Positions 13,591-53,672 of a stretch of DNA of 64,000 bases are shown piece by piece. How positions within the stretch are numbered: position 1 is the first letter of the stretch; each line of letters opens with the position of its first letter. Origin of the DNA: Mytilus trossulus (taxonomy: Eukaryota); assembly GCF_036588685.1 (NCBI RefSeq), contig NC_086382.1:48236001-48300000 (forward strand), written 5' to 3'. The notes under the pieces are model-generated. The model saw only the letters and a program-made list of their open reading frames with translations. It was not told the DNA's origin and made no database searches. The position numbers and the translations under genes are program-made.

Positions 13591-14990
13591 TACGGGGCGC
13601 CGAATGGGACTCTTGTGGTTTTGTACAAAATTCAATTCTGTCATAACAAAATCATTTTTGTCTTACAAAACTATGTGCTACAGACTTGTTTTGTGAGAAC
13701 TTCAATTTTGTGATGACAAAATTCATTTGTGTAGACAAAATTCATTTTTGTCATTACAAAATTCATTTTTGTAGACAAAATTCATTTTTGTAGACAAAAT
13801 TCATATTTGTCATGACAAAAGTCAATTTTGTCTTAAAGGTTTGCAAATATAAACATATTTGCATACAAAATTGACTTTTGTTACCTGATATGGAAATTAA
13901 ATCACAAAAGTCAATTGTGTACGGTAAGATTCAATTTTGTGAGACAAAATTGACTTTTGTGAAACAAAATTAACTTTTGTGAGACAAAATTGACTTTTGT
14001 GAGACTAAATTGACTTTTGTGAGACAGAATTGACTTTTGTGAGACAAAATTGACTTTTGTGAGACAAAATTCAATTTTGTCATTTTTGTGGAGACAAAAT
14101 TCAATTTTGTCATTTTTGTTGAGACAAAATTCAATTTTGTCATTTTTGTTGAGACAAAAGTCAATTTTGTTAATTTTGTTGAGACAAAAGTAAATTTTGT
14201 AAATTTTGTTGAGACAAAAGTCAATTTTGTGACGACAAATTTCATTTTTGTGATTACAAAATTCAATTTTGTAACAACAAAATTGACTTTTATGAGACAA
14301 AATTGACTTTCGTGAGACAAAATTGACTTTCGTGAGACAAAAATCAATTTTGTTGAGACAAAATTCAATTTTGTTAATTTTGTTAAGACAAAATTCAATT
14401 TTGTTGAGACAAAATTCAATTTTGTCAATTTTGTTGAGACAAAATTCAATTTTGTTAATTTTGTTGAGACAAAATTCAATTTTGTCAATTTTGTTGAGAC
14501 AAAATTCAATTTTGTCAATTTTGTTTAGACAAAAGTCAATTTTGTCAATTTTGTGTAACAAAAGTCAATTTTGTGTAACAAAAGTCAATTTTGTGTAACA
14601 AAAGTTAATTTTGTGTAACAAAAGTCAATTTTGTGTAACAAAAGTCAATTTTGTGTAACAAAAGTCAATTTTGTGTAACAAAAGTCGATTTTGTATGCAA
14701 ATTAGTTCACAGAAACCAAACTAAACTAATTTAAATACAAAATTGACTTTTGTCGCTCAATTTTCAAATTAGGTAACAAAAGTCAAGTCTGTGTAACAAA
14801 AATGAATTTTGTCATGACAAAAGTGACTTTTGTCCGCTGATAGATAATTTTGTATGACAAAATTTCAAATTTGTAGTATGATACAAATTTTGTTAAACTG
14901 AACTCATTTTTGTTGAACAAAAGTCACTTTTGTCCGTACAAAATTGAATTTTGAGTACAAAACCACAAGAGTCCCATTCGGCGCCCCGTA
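13591..14990. mobile_element. Unclassified non-autonomous TIR DNA transposon (1400 bp) filled with a 20-bp minisatellite
   Basis: Perfect 36-bp TIR TACGGGGCGCCGAATGGGACTCTTGTGGTTTTGTAC. 5-bp TSD AGCTC at 13586-13590 and 14991-14995. Confidence 0.92.
13930..14695. repeat. Minisatellite with 20-bp unit (GAGACAAAATTGACTTTTGT and variants) and 30-bp derived units
   Basis: Directly visible array; each unit is quasi-palindromic (ACAAAA-n5-TTTTGT). Confidence 0.95.
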
Positions 14991-31912: not shown

Positions 31913-33001
31913 TACCTATTATACAAGTAGCCAATAAGAACATTCCTGTGTTCAAGTTGTATCAAGTAGTGTAAGCACTAAACTATTTTTCTATCTTTTT
32001 CATGAAATTCTGATCTTGTCATTTGGCACGTGGCGGAACCGTCCTTAAATTTCAAAAAGGTTATCGGCCATAACATATGATTAATTTGGTTGTTAAAACA
32101 TATCGATGATAAAAGCTACTATGATAAGAAACCGTATTGCTTGAGAGAAGACAAGTACGTGATAGAAACGCAAAAAGAAGAAAACAATATCAAGTTTTTA
32201 TACGTTGAAACCTGCAACTATTTCGCTATTTACAAGAAATATCACATTTTTCATATCAGCCCTATAAATAAGTGTCTACTACTGAATCTTTTTACCACAA
32301 ATACTGTTTTGAAGAACACGAAAAACTATTACTTACCTTAGTCTTGATGATCAGGTTAAAAGATATGTTCTATGATCTTCTATTTTGCTATCATAGTGAT
32401 TATAACTAGTTGGTGAAAATTGTCAGTCTAGTTTGATGTTTTATACCTCACATAAACCATGATTATTCATTTCCATTTTAAGCCTTAAGCGTCCGTTTTA
32501 TCCGTTGACGTCCGTTTTGTTCGATGGAAAATTTTGAGCATGTTCAAAACTTTGAACGGACGTCCAACGGATAAAATTTCCGTTGAACTTCCGTTAAGCG
32601 TCCGTTAGGCGTCCGTTTTGTACGGTACTCGTCCGTTTTGTATCCGTTACGTGTCCGTTATGCATCCGTTGGAGATCCGGTAGACCAATTCACCAACGAA
32701 CGTCTACCGGACGCCTAACGGACGCCTAACGAATAAAACGGATGTGAAACGGACATTAACGGAAGGATAACGGATAAAACGGATGCCTACTGATAGTTTA
32801 TTCTCATAAAACCATGCAAGTTCAAAGGTTACAGAGAAGTTGAAAAATAATATACATCAAAAACAAATATGCATTAGAAATGCATAAAATTCAAAAATAC
32901 TAGATGTAAAACGGACAAACGCCAATTGAAATTTCGCGTCAGAAATGCTAATATATGGTATGTTAGATTTTCGTGAGTGTCATGACTATTTATTATTCGT
33001 T

Positions 33002-33185
33002 ATGGATCTTGGAGTAAGAGCACGTCTTCGCTACCAAGCAGCTCTTATTCAGGCCAGACTCAACTTAAATGTAGCAAATATAACCCTTATAGCTGTCGAA
33101 AGGAGAAGACAAAGGAGATGGTGGACACGACCATGGCTTAGTCCTGAAAGACGACGCAGTTTTTGTCTATATGACCAAATCATGA
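33002..33185 (+). pseudogene. Harbinger-type transposase N-terminal remnant
   Basis: ERRRQRRWWTRPWLSPERRRSFCLYDQIM resembles the RRWWVRPW...LY..LM N-terminus of Harbinger transposases. No DDE core follows. Confidence 0.7.
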
Positions 33186-33320
33186 AGAAACGTAAAAACA
33201 AATCGGATAAATTGTTCAATTTGTTTGGTACGTGTGACCTTGATAACTGTCCTACTGACCAGACTTTCCCAGAAGCAAATATTATAACATATATACTAGA
33301 TACCATGTCCATCTGACGCG

Positions 33321-33412
33321 CCTTTAATTTTCAGATGGTTTATTTCTTTTAATTTTCAGATGGTTTATTGCCTTTAATTTTTAGATGGTTTATTGCCTTT
33401 AATTTTCAGATT
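33321..33412. repeat. 25-bp tandem repeat x3.6 (cctttaattttcagatggtttattg)
   Basis: Directly visible inside Harbinger copy A; a shorter inverted version lies at 33930-33986. Confidence 0.85.
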
Positions 33413-33992
33413 ATTTTGTTCATCCGTTTTATCCGTTACGCTTCCGTTAGGTGTCCGTTTTATCCGGTACTCGTCCGTTGGATGTACGTTCGACGTCCGT
33501 TCTGTCCGGTATGTATCCGTTTCACGTACGTTCAATGTCCGTTGTGTGTCCGTTAGGCATTCGTTACATGTCCGTTAGTACACCAACAGACTCCCAACGG
33601 ATAAAAATTTTGTCAACGGATAACTTTTTTTTATCCGTTAGGCGTCCGTTTGAGCTATCCGGTAAGGTGTGACCAAGGCTTACCGGATAGCTCGAAAGGA
33701 CGCCTAACGGATAAAAAAAAAGTTATCCGTTGACCAAATTTTTATCCGTTGGGAGTCCGTTGGTGTTCTTACGGACATGTAACGAATGCCTAACGGACAC
33801 ACAACGAACATTGAACGTACGCGAAACGGATACGTACCGGACAGAACGGACTTCAAACGTACATCCAACGGACGAGTACCGGATAAAACGTACACCTAAC
33901 GGAAGCGTAACGGATAAAACGGATGAACAAAATAATCTGACAATTAAAGGCAATAAAGCATCTAAAAATTAAAGGCAATAAACCATGCCAAA

Positions 33993-34590
33993 GGAGTAGG
34001 TCCGGTAAGCACCGATTTTGGCCTCAAATTTCAGGTTCATCTGACGAAAGATTTTGACAACGTGCCTATTTCAAATGTTGCGATTGATTTATGTGAAAGA
34101 TTCTCTTTTAATTCATTCAATTACTTTTTGTGAAAGATTTTAACTGATTTAATAATTAAAAACGACCCGATTCAAGCTCAAATTTGAAAAATCTACCAAA
34201 TATGCCGAAAAATGTAACTTTTCAGATGGTTTTTTTCAAAAATGAAAGTGGCCGCATCCGTGTTTATCCTCAACCTTTACATATGTTATGTATTATCCTC
34301 AAATATAACTTACATTTCAATATCAAGGATGAACACGGATGCGGCCACTTTCGTTTTACACGGAAACCGTCTGAAATTTAACTTAAATGCTAGAATTTGG
34401 AAGATTTCAGTAATTTAGCATGACTTTGTGGTGCTAGTTCCCGATATATGTGCATTGTATTATAAAAAAAGCCCATATTTATATAGCAGAAGCATTCTAC
34501 TGTCCAATAAATAACTAATAGTTTACATTTTAACAACTTTGTAAAACTGCTATATTTGGGGGCAAAAAGGGGTCTTACTGAACCTACTCC
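33993..34590. mobile_element. Spy-like non-autonomous element (598 bp) nested in Harbinger copy B
   Basis: GGAGTAGGTCCGGTAAG...CTTACTGAACCTACTCC with AAA|TTT flanks. Internal inverted repeat at about 34238-34358. Confidence 0.85.
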
Positions 34591-37500
34591 TTTCAATTGG
34601 CATTTGTCCGTTTTGCATCCGTTTTATCCGTTATCCTTCCGTTAATGTCCGTTTCACATCCGTTTCACATCCGTTTTATCCGTTAGGCGTCCGTAAGGCG
34701 TCCGGTAGACGTCCGTTGGTGAATTGGTCTACCGGATCTCCAACGGATACATAACGAACACGTAACGGATACAAAATGGACGAGTACCGTACAAAACGGA
34801 CGTCTAACGGACGTTCAACGGACATTTTATCCGTTGGACGTCCGTTCACAGTTTTGAACATGCTCAAAATTTTCCACCGGACAGAACGGACGTCAACAGA
34901 TAAAACGGACGCTTAACGGACATGCAACGGATAGTGACGGACGCCTAACGGATAAGAACGGACGTCTAACGGACATGAACGGATTGAAAAAAAGTTATCC
35001 GTTAGGCGTCCGTTCGAGCTATCCGGTAAGGTGTGACCGAGGCTGTAAGGTGTGACCGAGGCTTTATAAATGGAAGTTGAAGTTTTCTATAGATGAAGCA
35101 GTAGTCGTCTTCAATACATGTATATCAGTTTATATCTTTTTCATTATAAGCAGGTTTTTTTTGTGGTTTGTAATATGTCAACTTCTAAATCTCAAATATG
35201 ATATGCATGTCACATAAGATTACCCCTTTACATGTATGGAAAGCGATTTGGTTCATTAGAAAAGAGTCAATAAAGCAATTAAACATTTTTCAACAGATTG
35301 TGCGTTTCTGTTCAGACCTGCCATTTTCTTGCACCGAGCGTAGTCCTGACTAAAGTAATCATTACCATGAAAGCATGCAATCGAAATGAATGAATCTTAA
35401 AATGTTATTATGCTAGGAAATCATATATATGAATATATAAGTTATATGGAAATTGCTACAGAACTAGCAGCTCGGCAATTTTTGAAAGGCAAGATTAAAG
35501 TCGAATCTTCTGATGTGAATGTTCCAAATGCATTTGCCTGGCCTTTACGCAGATTACCACGTTGCCGTAATGAATAATGGGCCATTGCTTGAGTGAACAC
35601 TGGCCTTTGGGACTCGAAATAGCTTCTTTTTCTAATTAAAAATTGTATTGAGTATAAAATGGTGGCTTTAAATTTACCGTCGACAGTTGACGGCAGCAGC
35701 AGATACTATGGCCTGGTAGCCGTGTCCTATCTCTGCTAAACTTCGGTCGAACAGAGGGCCATAGTCCAAGGCTACAGATATTATAACAGTTTCACAGACT
35801 GTAAATATGATTTCTCTTGCGGAATGCTAGATTTTTTTCGGTAATGTTATTATAAGAATCGTAAACTTTTATGGTACCCCATTAATGAAGGAATTCGTTT
35901 TGTTGTGTAATGCAGATGGAAAATTATCACTAGGAATGATCAATTAGTTTCGTATCCTTGTCATCGCTTCATCTTGTCTACGTTAAAGCTTATCAGTGCA
36001 TCGGTGGTGAGGTGACCTGGCGGTAGCATGCAATAATTTGCTTCAGAAGATGTCTTTAATTGTGTTTTTTATTTTCGTATTCCACTTAATACACGGTTTC
36101 AAAAATGTCTTTAAAAACTCCTGGATGATTCGCAGCGTGTTTCATTAGTTACTCTACGTTATAAAAATGATAAAATCAACGTTATCAAAATGTTTTGTCG
36201 TTTGAAGAAATTCGAATAGAGCACGTGCGCTTTTAACATATCGTCTGTACGTTTCATTTGGATGAAATGTTATTGGAATTTCAAAGTGCCCATAATTATT
36301 TGTTTTCAGTTTGCAGCTGCAGGGCTTGGATATTTCAGCATATATTCTTTTCGGTATCTTTATCAAGATATAGCATAATAAACTTTTAAAAAGGTACATT
36401 TCTTTTGATGAGCACATGAATACTTAATAAATCAATATAGTACATCTTTAGAGAGCTATTTTCAAGAATAAATTTCCTAATAATATAGGAAAATTCATTA
36501 AAGTTTTTAATTGAACAATTTTACACGTGTGCTAACATTAAAGTTTGTTTTAAACATTTGAAGATAATGTTAACTGCTTCCTAACAAGTTAATGCTGTAG
36601 TTTTATTACTTCTCTCAATTGAACGACAATAAAAATGAAATCATTTAGTTCAAAGAAAATATAAAATGTATTTATATAATATAGTTCTTACACTTGTTTT
36701 ACAGATGATGACAGCATTGTTAATTCTATATCCTAAAAAGTCATAGATATGGATTTCATATACATTGTGAGTGGTATATGTATATCAGACGCTCGAATAT
36801 GTCTCTTTTTTTTAATAAAGGTGTAAGTGCCTGCTTAGGCCTATCCGTCTCAAATAGACCATGTTGTTACCATTTGAAAACAGTCTATTTATTCTGTGGC
36901 ATCTGTTCGCATTTTTTTTTTTTTCTTTTTCTAATTTAAGTATTTTAACACTCAAGACTCCTAAGTTTGGTAAATACGACCATAATGTTGTATAACAGTG
37001 GTGTGTATAGAAAAGGGGTGTATCATGCACCCGTCGAATTTGTGCATGTATGAACTTTTTAAGTCTATTACGATTGCTTTATTATATAGTTTGATCTGTT
37101 TTGATGTGTAGTTTTCATTTTCCGCGCCGAATGTGTTATGCTCACTTCATCTTTATTTCATCATGTATATGAATATTCATTATGCAATTATTAATTGCTT
37201 ATTTGCATGAAATATGTATATGTAGTATAATTATGCATGATCTAAGTGTCCAGTCATCTTCTTTCACTTTTTTCACCAGCAAAACCATTATGACTTCATA
37301 CTATATAGTTTTACTTATTGTGTTATTTGTTTTACTCGTTGGAATCATATGGTAAAACACATACATGTATACACAATTTGTTAAAATAAGTAAATTAACT
37401 GGCTTTATTTTTATAATTATACCATTTCAGTTACCAGTTTATTTATTAAAGTAATTTTCATCATCATTTTTAACGTTTAAAAAAAATGCTGTTATTTCTT

Positions 37501-42475: not shown

Positions 42476-42554
42476 CTCTATTTTGTCCAAAGTTGTTCTG
42501 TGATTCTCCCATCTGATGGAATTTGTCCTGATAATAATGTGGACTGTTTACTGT
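42476..42554 (-). CDS. MyoD: MyoD coding exon 2 (79 nt; TVNSPHYYQDKFHQMGESQNNFGQNR + G)
   Basis: Acceptor cctttatatttttcAG, open frame in phase 0, donor AG|GTAATT in phase 1. These phases exactly bridge exon 1 and exon 3. Found by manual reading; too short for the ORF track. Confidence 0.88.
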
Positions 42555-47600: not shown

Positions 47601-48565
47601 TACTTTGAATTGTAGGTCTATTTATAAAGATATACGAATTTTGTCTTTTTATATTTTAAAATCAAAATGATTGATATTAATTATTTTATTTTAACTACAA
47701 AGAAAAATCTATTAAGATCCCTAATGTGTTCATTTTCTAAAAACACGTGTACTTTTTTGTCAATTAATGTTCGTAACGAGCAACAAATTGTACGATTTCT
47801 AAAGAAGTTCGCCGTCTATAAAATATTCCAGTACAGATTCACAGCAAGAGACAATAAAATTACGATTTTAATAGATTTTACAGAAAAATATTATTATAAA
47901 GATATGAAAGCCTTTTGACAGCATGATATAATGCAAGAAACAGATCTCATTAAAAGCATTACCAACAACGATTAGGAGTTTTTTCATAGCTCTTGACCAT
48001 AACTTTGTAAGATTAGACCTTAATACTTCCATCAAAGAGGCCTCCTGGTGCCTGTTTGATATTGACCCCTAGAGAGAAACATGACCCATATATTCTAGCT
48101 CATAATATGTCTCGGTAAATATCGAAAAAGCACATGGTGAAGATAAGGTTGCGCCACACGAAAAAGATACAATTTGAAGATTATCACTGATAATATCTGA
48201 TAGACTGATAGCAAGAACACACTTCCTTAGTCGAATTCGATGATTTAAAGTTAGATTTATGTGTATGACACGTCGACTAAGTGTTGAAATCTTGAAAAGT
48301 TAGATAAAACGTATAGTAACTTATCATTAAAAATAAGTAGCAATTTCTTTGTCATCGTATGTCACTTTTTCCACGTGTTATTCGAATAGAAAAACAGATA
48401 ATAGACAAAATTCTCTACACCAACTAAATACCTGTAGTCTTTACGGATATTACTTCTGGAATAAATGACATAACGCATTAGGTTTACCAGATTTTACTCT
48501 GTTTTTTGTTTTTTATTTAGATGAGTTTGTGATATTATTGTGCACATGAGTTTGCATGAAGTTTT

Positions 48566-48818
48566 AGTTTAAACATATTTATTTAGAGTGGATTGGGAAA
48601 CAAGTTTTACAACTTATATTAATCCCTTTCCACTTTGCGGGTGCGAGTACTGCCTTGTAGCGGCATTAGCCTACTCTTTTTCGAAATCTACAAGGGTGTC
48701 TTTAACGTGCAAGAGGCATGGCTCTCTCTTAACACGGGTCAGCCATTTATCGTCCCCTTCCGACGGACTATCATCGTTTCCTTATGTTAAGACCATACTC
48801 GCAAATGGTGTCAAGGGA
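48566..48818 (-). mobile_element. 5'-truncated Meta/MESC-type SINE
   Basis: Minus strand has gtccgtcggaaggggacgataaa...cttgcacgttaaagacaccc (Meta-domain-like). 12-bp TSD GCATGAAGTTTT at 48554-48565 and 48819-48830. Confidence 0.82.
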
Positions 48819-49173
48819 GCATGAAGTTTTGTTTATGTCCAGGAGATATTCATATTTTCTAAGATATGATTGTATTCTTTAAAAAAATTCAGAGAAAATT
48901 GAAGATGAAAATTATTGAATGAATAATTTACTATGGAATGTATCTTACTCTGATATTTTTACTCTGATATACACTATATAATTATGTCATGTATGTAGTA
49001 CGGAAACAAGAAAAGTGACACCCCTCCCCCTTTTTCGAAACAAAATAAAATATCGTAAACCAATTAAATTTATATAGTCCAATTTCTTCTACGTTTTTTT
49101 TCGCAGAAACAAAAAACCTTATTCCAAAAATTATTAAATATGAAGTAGAAATGTTTTCAAATCCTGTCATATT

Positions 49174-50845
49174 CACTGTGCTTAAACGGCCGTGGGTAAC
49201 TTAAGTTACACACAGCCCAAAATGGAGCCGCCTGGCTTCGGTTAGGAAGTTTGCTCGTATATAATTACAATACCATGAATACAAAAGAAATGTTCAGCAA
49301 TTAAAAAGTTATATAAATCTTTTAGGGAAACTCTGCAAATTTTTTACAACAAAATAAACGATTACAGCACGATTTTCCAAAACACTTATGATGTCCGTAA
49401 CTTCAAAACAGCTTGTCCGTAACTTTTTTCCTTATACCAATAGGGATGTCCGTAACTTTAGCATGATGTCAGTAACTTTCAAAGAATCTTTATTCATAGA
49501 TGTTATTATAAAAAAAAGAAATGATAAATAACACAAATACCGAACTCCTAGGAATATTCAAACAGGAAGTCCTCTATGGAATGGCAAAGCCAAAAGCTCA
49601 ATTTAACACACCAAACGAATGGAAAACAAAGGTCATATTCCTGCCTTGGTACAGGCAATTAAAAAAAGTTAAATTACAAAAATGCTGAACTCTGAAGAAA
49701 ATTCTAAAAGGAAAGTCCCTTATCAAATGAAAAAATCCAAAGCTCAACCGATTGGATAACCACTGCCATTTTCCTGACTTGGTACAGGCATTTTCTTATG
49801 TAAAAAATTGTATGGCAAAATTGATTTATCTTACATTCTACTGGCTTTATAGATTGTACTGCTTAAGTTTTAAATGATAAATCATGACATGCAGGTTATA
49901 GATCTCACCATTTCCAACTTTAGAAATTACATTAATGGTGAACATATGAAAATCACCTATAGTAAGGAGAACAAGTTCGGAGGTCAATCATTAGCAAAAA
50001 TACATAGATGAATCAGTCCAAACCTCTAAAGAAGATATGTATGATTTGATACCCGATCTTATTGAATCCCTGAGGTCAATGAAACTTTCAGAAGATTTTA
50101 AATTTACTTTTATTTCTATAATAAACTGACATCTGTTCAACAATATAGCCTTCCATCTGTTCCTAGATATCGTCATTTCCCCCCTCACAATCAACAACAC
50201 ATCACACTAGATATAATGAAGAGACCATACATTTTTGGCTAACAATTCAGAAATTATTTAAAGGAAAGGATATCAATTTTCCGCGGCTACACCGACTAAG
50301 GACTCATCAATGAACAATCTATAAAGCTAGAAGAATGTTAGATAAATTTCGCCGTACCGTAAGATCCCGTTTTATCCCGGGAATAATTTTTAAAAATTTA
50401 ACGGAAAATCCGTGACACTCTGGTTTGCTTTTTTCTCTTGTTTAGTTTGAAGCATATCGTTATTGTATAAATCTATGTAATAATTAAGGGGTTTGATAGT
50501 GTTTATTGTCCTTTAAGTGTTGAAATTGTTAATCTTAAAATTTGGAAAAAAAGTTACCCACATCCGAAAATAAAGTTACGGACAGTCTGATTATTTTTGA
50601 CTTATAAGTTACGGACATCTTATGCATTTTTTAAAGTTGGCCTTGCGCTAAAGTGAAGTCAAAATTAACAAATTTGTAGTGATGGTAAGTGATTTCTTTA
50701 TTCAAAAGTCCTTTCAATATTTACATAGATCAAGAAAAACGTTGCAAAAAGTAGATTTCTTATCAACTATAATCTCAACGAGTTTAGAGTCCGCCATCTT
50801 GGGCTGTGGGTAACTTAAGTTACCCACGGCCGTTTAAGCACAGTG
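49174..50845. mobile_element. Non-autonomous DNA transposon with CACTGTG...CACAGTG termini and 5-bp TSD (Transib/RAG-like candidate), 1672 bp, in MyoD intron 1
   Basis: 52-bp TIRs with 2 mismatches. TSD ATATT at 49169-49173 and 50846-50850. Subterminal TGTCCGTAACTT repeats (4 left, 2-3 inverted right). Superfamily call is inference. Confidence 0.85.
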
Positions 50846-51387
50846 ATATTGAGATGAGATACGTGTAATTATTAAATATCTTTGTCTGTTTATCGTTTTA
50901 ATCTAAATGTATTCTACATGTAAAGCCATATTAATGAAAACAGCGAAAAGGGTTATAAATCAAAACCATATATTTGAAAAAAGTTTTGTTAGTTGAACTT
51001 GTATGACAAAGAACAGGACAATTTATAAGTTTGGTTCGTCCGAAGCCCTTAACTGGGTGAACCTAGAATGCTAAAATCCAAAATATTGAAAGTCAATTAT
51101 GTATATCCACATGAAAAATTGAGGAGCTACATGTATATAACCTAAAGGGACGAAAAACGAATTGTCAAATACACCTCAGATCAAACATATTTGTAATACA
51201 ATGTTTATAAATATATGAATGTAAAATAACATGTGTTGCCTTTTTTTGGCACTTTAATTAACTCTTTCAACCTTTTTTTATATGAATCTTCGAATATATT
51301 AAGTTGTTTTGTTTTTCAAAGGATTATTAAGTTCTGTACAACCACAATTTTTATTTTAAAAAGTTTTGTTTACAAAGTGAATCTATC

Positions 51388-52850: not shown

Positions 52851-53672
52851 CATATAGTCGGAACCACTGCTTGTTGATCCGTTGTCATTTATATGTTCAT
52901 CTACATTTCTTCCCATTCTGTTGCCATGTAACATTTCTTCTAAACTTTCTATATAATCGATGGCGTTTCGTAAGATCTCTACTTTCGGAAGTCTTTGATT
53001 CGGATTTGGACATGTTCGTCGTTTTAATGTTTCAAAAGCTTCATTCACTTTACGCAATCTCCGCCTTTCTCTCATTGTAGCTGCTTTTCGACGATCAATT
53101 GTTACTGTCTTGCGTTTACAAGCTTTGCAGGCCCACAAAAGACATCTCCTGTTTGGTCCATGAAATCCTGGTGCTAAAACATGCTGAACAGGGTCTTCTC
53201 CATCTTCAGAAGTATTTAAATCCATATCATCATCTCCACATAACGACGAAGAATTTGAATTTTCATTCACAATGTTATGATTTTTATCTAGTTCACTTTC
53301 ATTTCTTTCTTCCTTAATCATCATTTTTGGGTCGGATTCCTGTCTTTTTTGTTCCGTTTGTTTTTCTTTTGCAGACGACAGACAGCGCGTGCGATTAACG
53401 TGCGAGTTAAAGTAGTTCCTTGAAGTGTTGTTGGCAGTGTTTTGATATGGAGAATAATGATCGGTGTAGGGACGCTCAAATGGACGATTGTGATATGATA
53501 AGGAAGCGGAATTGTAGAATTCATGAGTTGAACTACCATGGGAATAAGATAAATCAGTTAAATGTCTAGATTCCGATAAATTAGTGTTACTACCAGCAGA
53601 CGAGCTTCCAAAGGAGGCAAAATTATTAGGTTCATATCGGCAGCTTCTGTATTCTGCCGTCATCATCATCAT
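52851..53672 (-). CDS. MyoD: MyoD-family myogenic regulatory factor (bHLH; SUM-1/nautilus-like), coding exon 1
   Basis: Translation contains the His/Cys motif [26 protein letters not shown], the basic region [14 protein letters not shown] with the myogenic Ala-Thr, and the [44 protein letters not shown]. The first true ATG is at 53672 (ATG x4). The exon ends ...SDYM| before a GTAGGT donor at 52850 (phase 0). Confidence 0.97.

Follow-up and report, generated by a model that had tools for sequence, protein, structure and literature searches.

Terminal structure of the element and its host gene

What kind of enzyme moves a transposon whose ends resemble the heptamer of the RAG recombination signal sequence (RSS), and does this resemblance reflect kinship with Transib and RAG? 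The question is raised by an insertion in a MyoD-like gene of Mytilus trossulus, which we analysed within a window of 64,000 nucleotides (the whole stretch of DNA studied; Table 1). The initial annotation had described an exact ATATT target-site duplication (TSD), 52-bp terminal inverted repeats (TIRs), a 22-bp palindrome and oriented subterminal repeats, and all of these were found again: the two TSD copies are exact, the TIRs are identical at 50/52 positions, the palindrome is perfect at the right end with one mismatch at the left, and four subterminal repeats on the left are paired with three in inverted orientation on the right. The proposed likeness to the RSS held in part, as both tips read CACTGTG inward, a 6/7 match that is one base off the heptamer CACAGTG. 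The host gene encodes a myogenic bHLH protein on the minus strand (Pfam Basic and HLH), and its coding exons 1 and 2 flank the element, which therefore lies in intron 1, as had been stated; such an insertion is by itself ordinary. Among the contig joints listed for other animals, none ran across the element as an empty site, and none of the RNA datasets listed contained this stretch of the window.

Table 1. Positions of the element, its parts and the host gene in the window
Feature	Position	Strand	Remark
Left TSD, ATATT	49169-49173		
Whole element	49174-50845		1,672 bp, between two exact ATATT copies
Left TIR	49174-49225	+	52 bp, CACTGTG start
Palindrome copy in left TIR	49192-49213		one mismatch
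ATG (element position 49) and GT (68-69)	49222-49242	+	likely remains of a first mini-exon encoded in the TIR; splicing inferred
Four GATGTCCGTAAC-type subterminal repeats, left	49390-49476	+	likely (predicted) binding sites
Segment absent in 1.17-kb subfamily	49486-49979		core kept in 45/66 aligned copies
Captured very-high-copy repeat	49560-49810		direct repeats spaced 133-146 bp
Inverted 34-bp copy of 50314-50347	49824-49857	-	likely template-switch filler
Transposase N-terminal remnant	49965-50383	+	frameshifted, with stops; tblastn, corresponds to C5 sister aa 118-259
Three subterminal repeats, right	50553-50619	-	inverted orientation
AAGATGGCGG	50791-50800	-	ATG at position 49 counted from the tip, as on the left; straddles inner TIR edge
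Right TIR	50794-50845	-	52 bp
Palindrome GTGGGTAACTTAAGTTACCCAC in right TIR	50806-50827		perfect, 22 bp; hairpin -13.2 kcal/mol, z -4.5
Right TSD, ATATT	50846-50850		
Host MyoD/SUM-1-like gene, coding exon 1	52851-53672	-	exon 1 ends at 52851
Host MyoD-like gene, exon 2	~42476-42554	-	homologue mapped
Host MyoD-like gene, exon 3	near 39630-39772		

Copies, target-site duplications and targets in the genome

A search of the assembly with the TIR had been proposed in the initial annotation, and the terminal 40-mer gave 177 exact genome matches compared with 0 for a control; at least 100 of these ends were listed. The window element is one of approximately 90 or more non-autonomous copies, mostly 1.1-1.9 kb in size, with a median identity of 92% among 66 aligned copies. 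It is 99.3% identical with a copy on another chromosome (L002) that has a different TSD, indicating that the family moved recently. Examination of 102 loci yielded 73 distinct two-ended insertions, in which the TSD was 5 bp in 56, 6 bp in 14 and absent in three, against a background of 0.8% of mismatched flank pairs giving a 5- or 6-bp match. Thus the expectation of 5-bp TSDs across copies was borne out for 56/73, with 6 bp found in 14/73. Two of the 14 insertions with a 6-bp TSD have common flanks and are probably one event.

The TSD lengths bear on the suggestion that the element is a derivative of EnSpm/CACTA or Chapaev (CMC) transposons, to which its CACTG tip and oriented subterminal repeats would point. 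CMC TSDs are 2-4 bp long, whereas no 4-bp TSD was called here and 70/73 were of 5 or 6 bp; furthermore, no CMC Pfam family was found on six transposases of the lineage described below at E values up to 1. Largely because of the TSD length, this reading is refuted in the main, and we regard it as extremely improbable.

The TSDs were AT-rich, with 22% GC compared with 31% in the flanks, and the 5-bp TSDs of 14 sister elements (see below) together with that of the window copy (n=15) had 19% GC. The target consensus was c-AWWWT-g, with A at position 1 in 82/112 symmetrised sites. As initially noted, no nonamer or 12/23 spacer was seen: the best nonamer match at spacers of 11-13 or 22-24 was 4/9, and the two ends are symmetric.

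A transposase remnant and its full-length sisters

A recurring protein motif was observed in the translated interiors of many copies, and a genome search with one natural remnant piece led to two long open frames. The open frame of the sister element C5 was matched by the window remnant in three frameshifted pieces with 34-59% identity (tblastn, E 6.8e-22); the match to the sister C41 had an E value of 5e-6, and those to the other sisters were likewise weaker than that to C5. The remnant, a feature absent from the earlier description, stops short of the first catalytic aspartate. The C5 gene is enclosed in an element of 11,059 bp whose tips read CACTGGG and whose TSD is AGTTT. A common TIR plan was found in the window element, C5 and a further sister, C6c, consisting of the CACTG tip, a GTAAC..GTTAC palindrome, CCCAAGATG at an equal position and GATnnCCGTAAC repeats, with GATGACCGTAAC repeats in C5.

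We fetched 27 transposase-bearing loci, and the ends were resolved in 16 and not in 11. All 16 resolved sisters start with CAC (CACAGTG in four, CACGGTG in three, CACCGTG in two and seven other heptamers once each), and 15/16 have a 5-bp TSD. An open frame of 1,331–1,494 aa is present in six of the 16, and 13 carry at least three C2H2 motifs on the opposite strand; the five convergent ORFs scanned against Pfam were all C2H2 arrays, none of them a kelch RAG2L. Full-length sisters measure 7-13 kb, and two copies of 11.4 kb share 98.7% identity and have different TSDs. Among the non-autonomous relatives of C5, three were resolved, one with a 5-bp and two with a 6-bp TSD. The six long-frame copies and the insertion pairs of 98.7-99.3% identity offer a probably active transposase with two nuclease centres that can be put to the test.

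A direct autonomous parent was not among the 38 unpaired and two paired ends fetched, all of which were non-autonomous or one-ended. No transposase sequence extended past the remnant in L001-L100, L112 and L113, and two protein searches (42/42 and 150/594 candidates scored) gave no closer full-length transposase gene. As no autonomous element with the TIR of the window family was found among the ends listed and the candidates scored, the mobilising enzyme is deduced from the remnant and the sisters. For the C41 transposase, most of the frame is covered by contigs from a run that was guessed to consist of RNA, and two other runs gave no cover; the contigs have two GT..AG joints, seen in one contig each at a depth of ~2.5, one joint having a short side of 26 letters. 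This gives a weak hint of C41 expression.

A putative start codon within the terminal repeat

A YY1-like motif had been reported to close the right TIR. The motif AAGATGGCGG is indeed present there, yet it more likely represents a start codon. C5 and C6c both carry AAGATG with its ATG at position 49, and a GT at position 68; in C5, the phase from ATG to GT agrees with the acceptor that precedes the transposase frame. At the left end of the window family, the ATG was found in 66/66 copies, G68 in 63/66 and T69 in 66/66; the window GT at position 68 fails the donor pattern used. With that pattern, a splice-donor-like site was detected in the first 220 nt of 19/30 lineage ends compared with 8.3 in shuffles. 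As the ATG and GT have common positions and a common phase in the window family, C5 and C6c, the motif likely supplies the start codon for a first mini-exon encoded in the TIR. YY1 sites are known to overlap start codons.

A predicted P-type core with a nested exonuclease

Conservation was read from an alignment of 150 homologues. The candidate catalytic residues were highly conserved (first Asp 79/81, second Asp 132/137, DxxH 124/125 each, Glu 107/111), as were those of a nuclease (Glu 117/120, Asp 123/125, Glu 123/125, Lys 122/126, Gln 122/125; range 102/105 to 123/125). A profile search of PDB sequences returned lambda-family exonucleases (E 1.8e-7), the Pfam family YqaJ scored above the cut-off in 5/6 proteins from the same genome, and TIGR03033 matched 5/5 proteins below the cut-off. 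In an AlphaFold2 model of 1,184 residues built with 60 sequences (pLDDT 85.6, pTM 0.76), the first Asp lies on strand 1. There follow ~490 residues comprising a helical stalk and the exonuclease, and after these come strands 2-4 (second Asp), a large insertion, strand 5 (DxxH motif) and the Glu helix. A lambda-type exonuclease is therefore predicted by the model to be nested after the first catalytic Asp and before the second. A nuclease within another nuclease is also found in IscB and Cas9, which carry HNH within RuvC.

Comparison of the model against 48,161 chains gave the P-element transposase 6p5a as a match with Z 29.9 (rmsd 3.1 Å over 324 residues, chain 204-569), followed by LHK-Exo (Z 15.2) and lambda exonuclease (Z 14.7), with Hermes at Z 9.2. 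Foldseek likewise had 6p5a as its top match (E 2.4e-4), and the Pfam P-type RNase H family was above the cut-off in P0040. PF21787 was absent or below the cut-off in 6/6 own-genome proteins, profile-profile comparison with the canonical P transposases of the same genome gave probabilities of 4% and 14%, and the match of the remnant region to the dimerization/HTH segment of P (Z 4.7) was within the noise range. Kinship to P is thus weak at the sequence level, and the P assignment rests mainly on one predicted model. Foldseek with the N-terminal model gave no match at E ≤ 0.001, and nothing informative came from searching the PDB with the C-terminal piece as a single sequence or from an initial Pfam scan. 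In the ESM Atlas, a single uncharacterised YqaJ cluster scored 0.85, which is no more than a lead.

The N-terminus departs from that of P transposases. A THAP motif pattern was found in 0/39 proteins with a long N-terminus and there was no THAP Pfam match, and 22/39 of these proteins have a C2H2-like finger. P transposase contacts GTP through eight residues, D528, K385, K400, V401, S409, F443, D444 and N447, as given in the available part of PMC7776569. We mapped these contacts from Drosophila P through the local P transposases, a bridge over a weak profile alignment that makes the mapping rough and, for F443, D444 and N447, ignores a gap placed there by HHalign. In this weak alignment, S409 was kept in 98/122 sequences and was the only contact identical in most of them; D528 was replaced by Leu in 87/111, K400 by Ser or Asn in 99/123 and F443 by Tyr, and K385 and D444 were variable. 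Most of the GTP contacts of the P element appear to be lost. Canonical P elements coexist in the same genome (20 matches); among eight examined, two had resolved ends with TSDs of 7 and 8 bp, and one starts with CACAGGC, showing that P-type ends can come to bear a CAC tip.

The fold comparison weighs directly on the reading proposed in the initial annotation, by which the element would be a non-autonomous Transib/RAG-like transposon moved by a RAG1-type transposase, with the P-like piece as cargo. The CAC tips, the 5-bp TSD in 56/73 insertions, the exact CACAGTG of four sisters and the convergent second gene of 13/16 sisters, as in RAG-like transposons, all agree with it. So do the RAG-like elements known in molluscs (in the part of PMC7204232 available) and the similarity of the target consensus to the cCAWTGc of Transib-N2_AG (PMC1131882, in part). 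However, the RAG-side fold matches were RAG1 (Z 10.0, 5.1 Å), BbRAG1L (Z 10.1, 4.7 Å) and HzTransib (Z 8.8, 6.5 Å), compared with Z 29.9 for P. In addition, 16 elements with such ends enclose intact non-RAG transposase genes, two of them in elements with the TIR plan of the window element, and the second gene encodes C2H2 arrays. The targets are AT-rich, a minority of TSDs are of 6 bp, there is no nonamer, and the TIR departs from CACTWMCAAACK, the consensus for protostome RAGL, as far as this is given in the excerpted source. Between the second Asp and the Glu there is no conserved zinc-type Cys/His set, only the DxxH His and two isolated Cys being conserved, and PF12940 (RAG1) had no match on the six transposases in Pfam. 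A search of the whole genome with PF12940 carries no weight here, as neither the genome nor the controls gave a match. We therefore consider a Transib/RAG origin very unlikely.

Proposed mechanism of mobilization

Taken together, the sequence comparisons and the structural model lead us to conclude that the window element is very probably a non-autonomous, internally deleted transposon that retains both ends and a broken piece of a transposase gene, and was likely moved in trans by the cut-and-paste activity of an enzyme with a predicted P-type fold and a predicted nested lambda-type exonuclease. It would work like a P-type cut-and-paste transposon, while appearing to differ from P in the THAP domain and the TSD and from Transib/RAG in most of the features compared. 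In the mechanism that we propose, both genes of a full-length element would start from an ATG and a splice donor within the terminal repeats. The transposase would bind the subterminal repeats and the TIR palindrome, with the zinc-finger protein a likely helper that replaces the THAP domain. The DDE core would then cut at the CAC tips and join them to an AT-rich target with a stagger of five, sometimes six, bases.

The exonuclease may have one of several roles. The most likely, which we favour tentatively and at slightly less than an even chance, would be resection of the 5' ends at the broken donor site, with the gap refilled from the sister chromatid. Such refilling would add copies and, when aborted, would give deletion derivatives with filler like the window element. 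Indirect support comes from traces suggestive of synthesis-dependent repair, namely a fold-back duplication at one TIR, the inverted filler in the window copy and 22 nt of filler where the edges of a 520-bp deletion were joined. A search for excision footprints with at least 14 TIR bases per side gave one match, which is the fold-back duplication; a short tip-to-tip pattern had 28 matches compared with 42 for the control, with a TSD in 0/15 of those checked. Repair fillers occur also in transposons that have no exonuclease.

Alternatively, in the same lineage, the exonuclease may trim the non-transferred strand of the transposon ends and so replace the 17-nt staggered cut of P. The GTP requirement of P and its staggered cut (PMC7776569, in the part available) and the failure of most GTP contacts to be kept in the bridged alignments are in keeping with this; however, the residue mapping depends on a profile alignment that is weak, and end intermediates were not observed; we consider end trimming doubtful. 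A role other than donor resection or end trimming seems rather improbable.

Distribution, novelty and significance

Homologues of the transposase were found in 1,990 cluster representatives at E values up to 0.001, and in 430 at 1e-30. Those with names belong to bivalves (nine genera), the snail Batillaria, the annelid Owenia and amphioxus, and none was labelled as a transposase; one homologue, filed under a bacterial symbiont bin, likely derives from host DNA. No description of the lineage was found in the main texts of the literature searched (Repbase and Dfam lay outside this search), nor was any literature found that combines YqaJ, P element and transposase, in line with the initial suggestion of a possibly undescribed family. 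A bivalve survey with superfamily HMMs recorded a single Transib element in the part available (PMC10294476), and the accessible text of the Kodama/Nozomi preprint deals with a Drosophila Transib of 648 aa and contains no description of the lineage.

It may nonetheless be that the lineage is real and already catalogued, for example as a P, Transib or unclassified DNA5 entry of Repbase or Dfam, or in a paper outside our search. That it occurs in amphioxus and in oysters, two groups with intensively curated repeats, would favour this, as would the 1,990 matching cluster representatives. Against it, the literature searched contains no description, and NCBI and UniRef give only the names 'hypothetical', 'uncharacterized' and 'YqaJ viral recombinase domain-containing'; we regard prior cataloguing as somewhat unlikely. 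The lineage is possibly a new superfamily. Our fuller proposal, put forward with less than even confidence, is that of an undescribed, still active animal lineage at superfamily level, having a P core with neither THAP nor GTP use, a phage-type exonuclease, a zinc-finger reader of the ends, gene starts within the TIRs and convergent RAG-like marks, to which misfiled lophotrochozoan 'Transib' families would belong.

If this is true, ends reading CACAGTG, TSDs of 5 bp and a layout of two convergent genes arose independently of RAG/Transib, and these marks are therefore not diagnostic of such ancestry. Many gene-less 'Transib' families in lophotrochozoan genomes would then be misfiled. The working rule that a CAC heptamer with a 5-bp TSD means Transib/RAG is broken by finding such marks on a predicted P-type enzyme, so that claims of RAG kinship made from the ends alone need to be re-checked in invertebrates. 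The proposal also suggests a function for approximately 2,000 protein clusters now named only as hypothetical or 'YqaJ domain-containing'. The lineage further lets one ask how a transposon steers break repair at the site it has left, and whether the GTP need of the P element is dispensable.

Comparison with known transposon systems

The closest likeness is to the P superfamily (6p5a/6pe2, THAP9, Galileo; PMC7776569, in the part available), which has in common with the lineage the predicted RNase H core with a helical insertion domain, the order D, D, DxxH, E, a CA tip, TIRs with internal repeats, and deletion derivatives. The lineage differs from P in the ~490-aa stalk and lambda-type exonuclease between strands 1 and 2, the lack of a THAP motif, the second convergent C2H2 gene, a protein of ~1,500-1,600 aa, and a TSD of 5 or 6 bp in contrast with the 8 bp given for P in the same source. 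Transib and RAGL elements, as described in the available parts of PMC1131882, PMC7204232 and PMC10629977, resemble it in their CAC(N)GTG tips, mostly 5-bp TSDs and two convergent genes. The much weaker fold match, the AT-rich targets, the C2H2 second gene and the nested exonuclease set the lineage apart from them. Transib and RAG favour GC-rich target sites (PMC1131882, in part), and the available part of that source makes no mention of 6-bp TSDs, which form a minority in the lineage.

Other transposons also combine a transposase with an exonuclease. KolobokE and ISL2EU are, like the lineage, DDE transposons that encode a PD-(D/E)xK lambda-exonuclease-like domain (PMC9587614 and PMC4482050, each in part). 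In KolobokE the nuclease is downstream from the transposase domain, and the superfamily has TTAA TSDs and RR tips (PMC9587614, in part); in ISL2EU it is a separate ORF and the tips are GG (PMC4482050, in part). The nuclease of the lineage, in contrast, lies within the catalytic core, and the CAC tips, 5/6-bp TSDs and nested nuclease led us to reject an assignment to KolobokE. Dada-1_LB and Dada_ES (PMC3706591, in part) are alike in having an exonuclease nested in a DxxH-type transposase core. The Dada enzyme is of the DEDDy 3'-5' type and follows the second Asp, and according to the available part of the same source Dada has no TIRs and makes 6-7-bp TSDs in small-RNA genes. Assignment to Dada was likewise rejected, on its lack of TIRs, its small-RNA gene targets and its DEDDy domain after the second Asp; the lineage has long TIRs, and its lambda-type domain, of the 5'-3' kind, precedes the second Asp.

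Repeats in the window outside the element

A short distance left of the element lies a short repeat of very high copy number, over which the summed contig depth was far greater than over its flanks in all four runs (4/4), and the repeat looks SINE- or MITE-like. Further away, the window contains a long array of TTTTGTGAGACAAAAT-type repeats with units of 19-21 bp; similar units were seen at locus L131. TCCGTT/AACGGA repeats are also clustered in the window, in opposing orientations, an arrangement like that of the subterminal arrays of another DNA transposon or of two such elements.

Coordinates of repeats, remnants and element copies (G000, same genome)
Feature	Sequence	Position
TTTTGTGAGACAAAAT-type array	window	13624-14933
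TCCGTT/AACGGA clusters	window	32579-34984
Short high-copy repeat	window	48564-48820
Second transposase remnant	G000:C10	48323265-48323432
L144, derivative	G000:C7	73522948-73526835
L194, fold-back copy	G000:C1	86463919
L207/L208, canonical P-type element	G000:C11	~4354034-4362481

Related sequences outside the window

Another remnant of the same transposase region as that in the element was detected ~23 kb past the window end. The N-terminal transposase segment of the window family is also retained, ending at approximately the same residue, in a second non-autonomous family of 2.0-2.7 kb (loci L164-L166 and L107), whose TIRs are of the type of sister element C5. The 3.9-kb derivative L144 has a 609-aa frame including the exonuclease region, with seven zinc fingers present and the C-terminal catalytic half lost.

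At L194, the TIR and ~40 bp of flank were copied inverted through the palindrome, and this fold-back duplication produced the perfect 58-bp hairpin at its end. The insertions L043 and L044, both on contig C5, share identical flanks and the same 6-bp TSD and are probably a segmental duplication, one of them holding an additional 7.9-kb insert. The family protein P0193 is encoded on a 5-kb contig filed under a bacterial symbiont bin; the contig is likely to be host DNA within that bin.

The genome of the window also contains a canonical P-type element (L207/L208), which has perfect 286-bp TIRs starting with CACAGGC and an 8-bp TSD.
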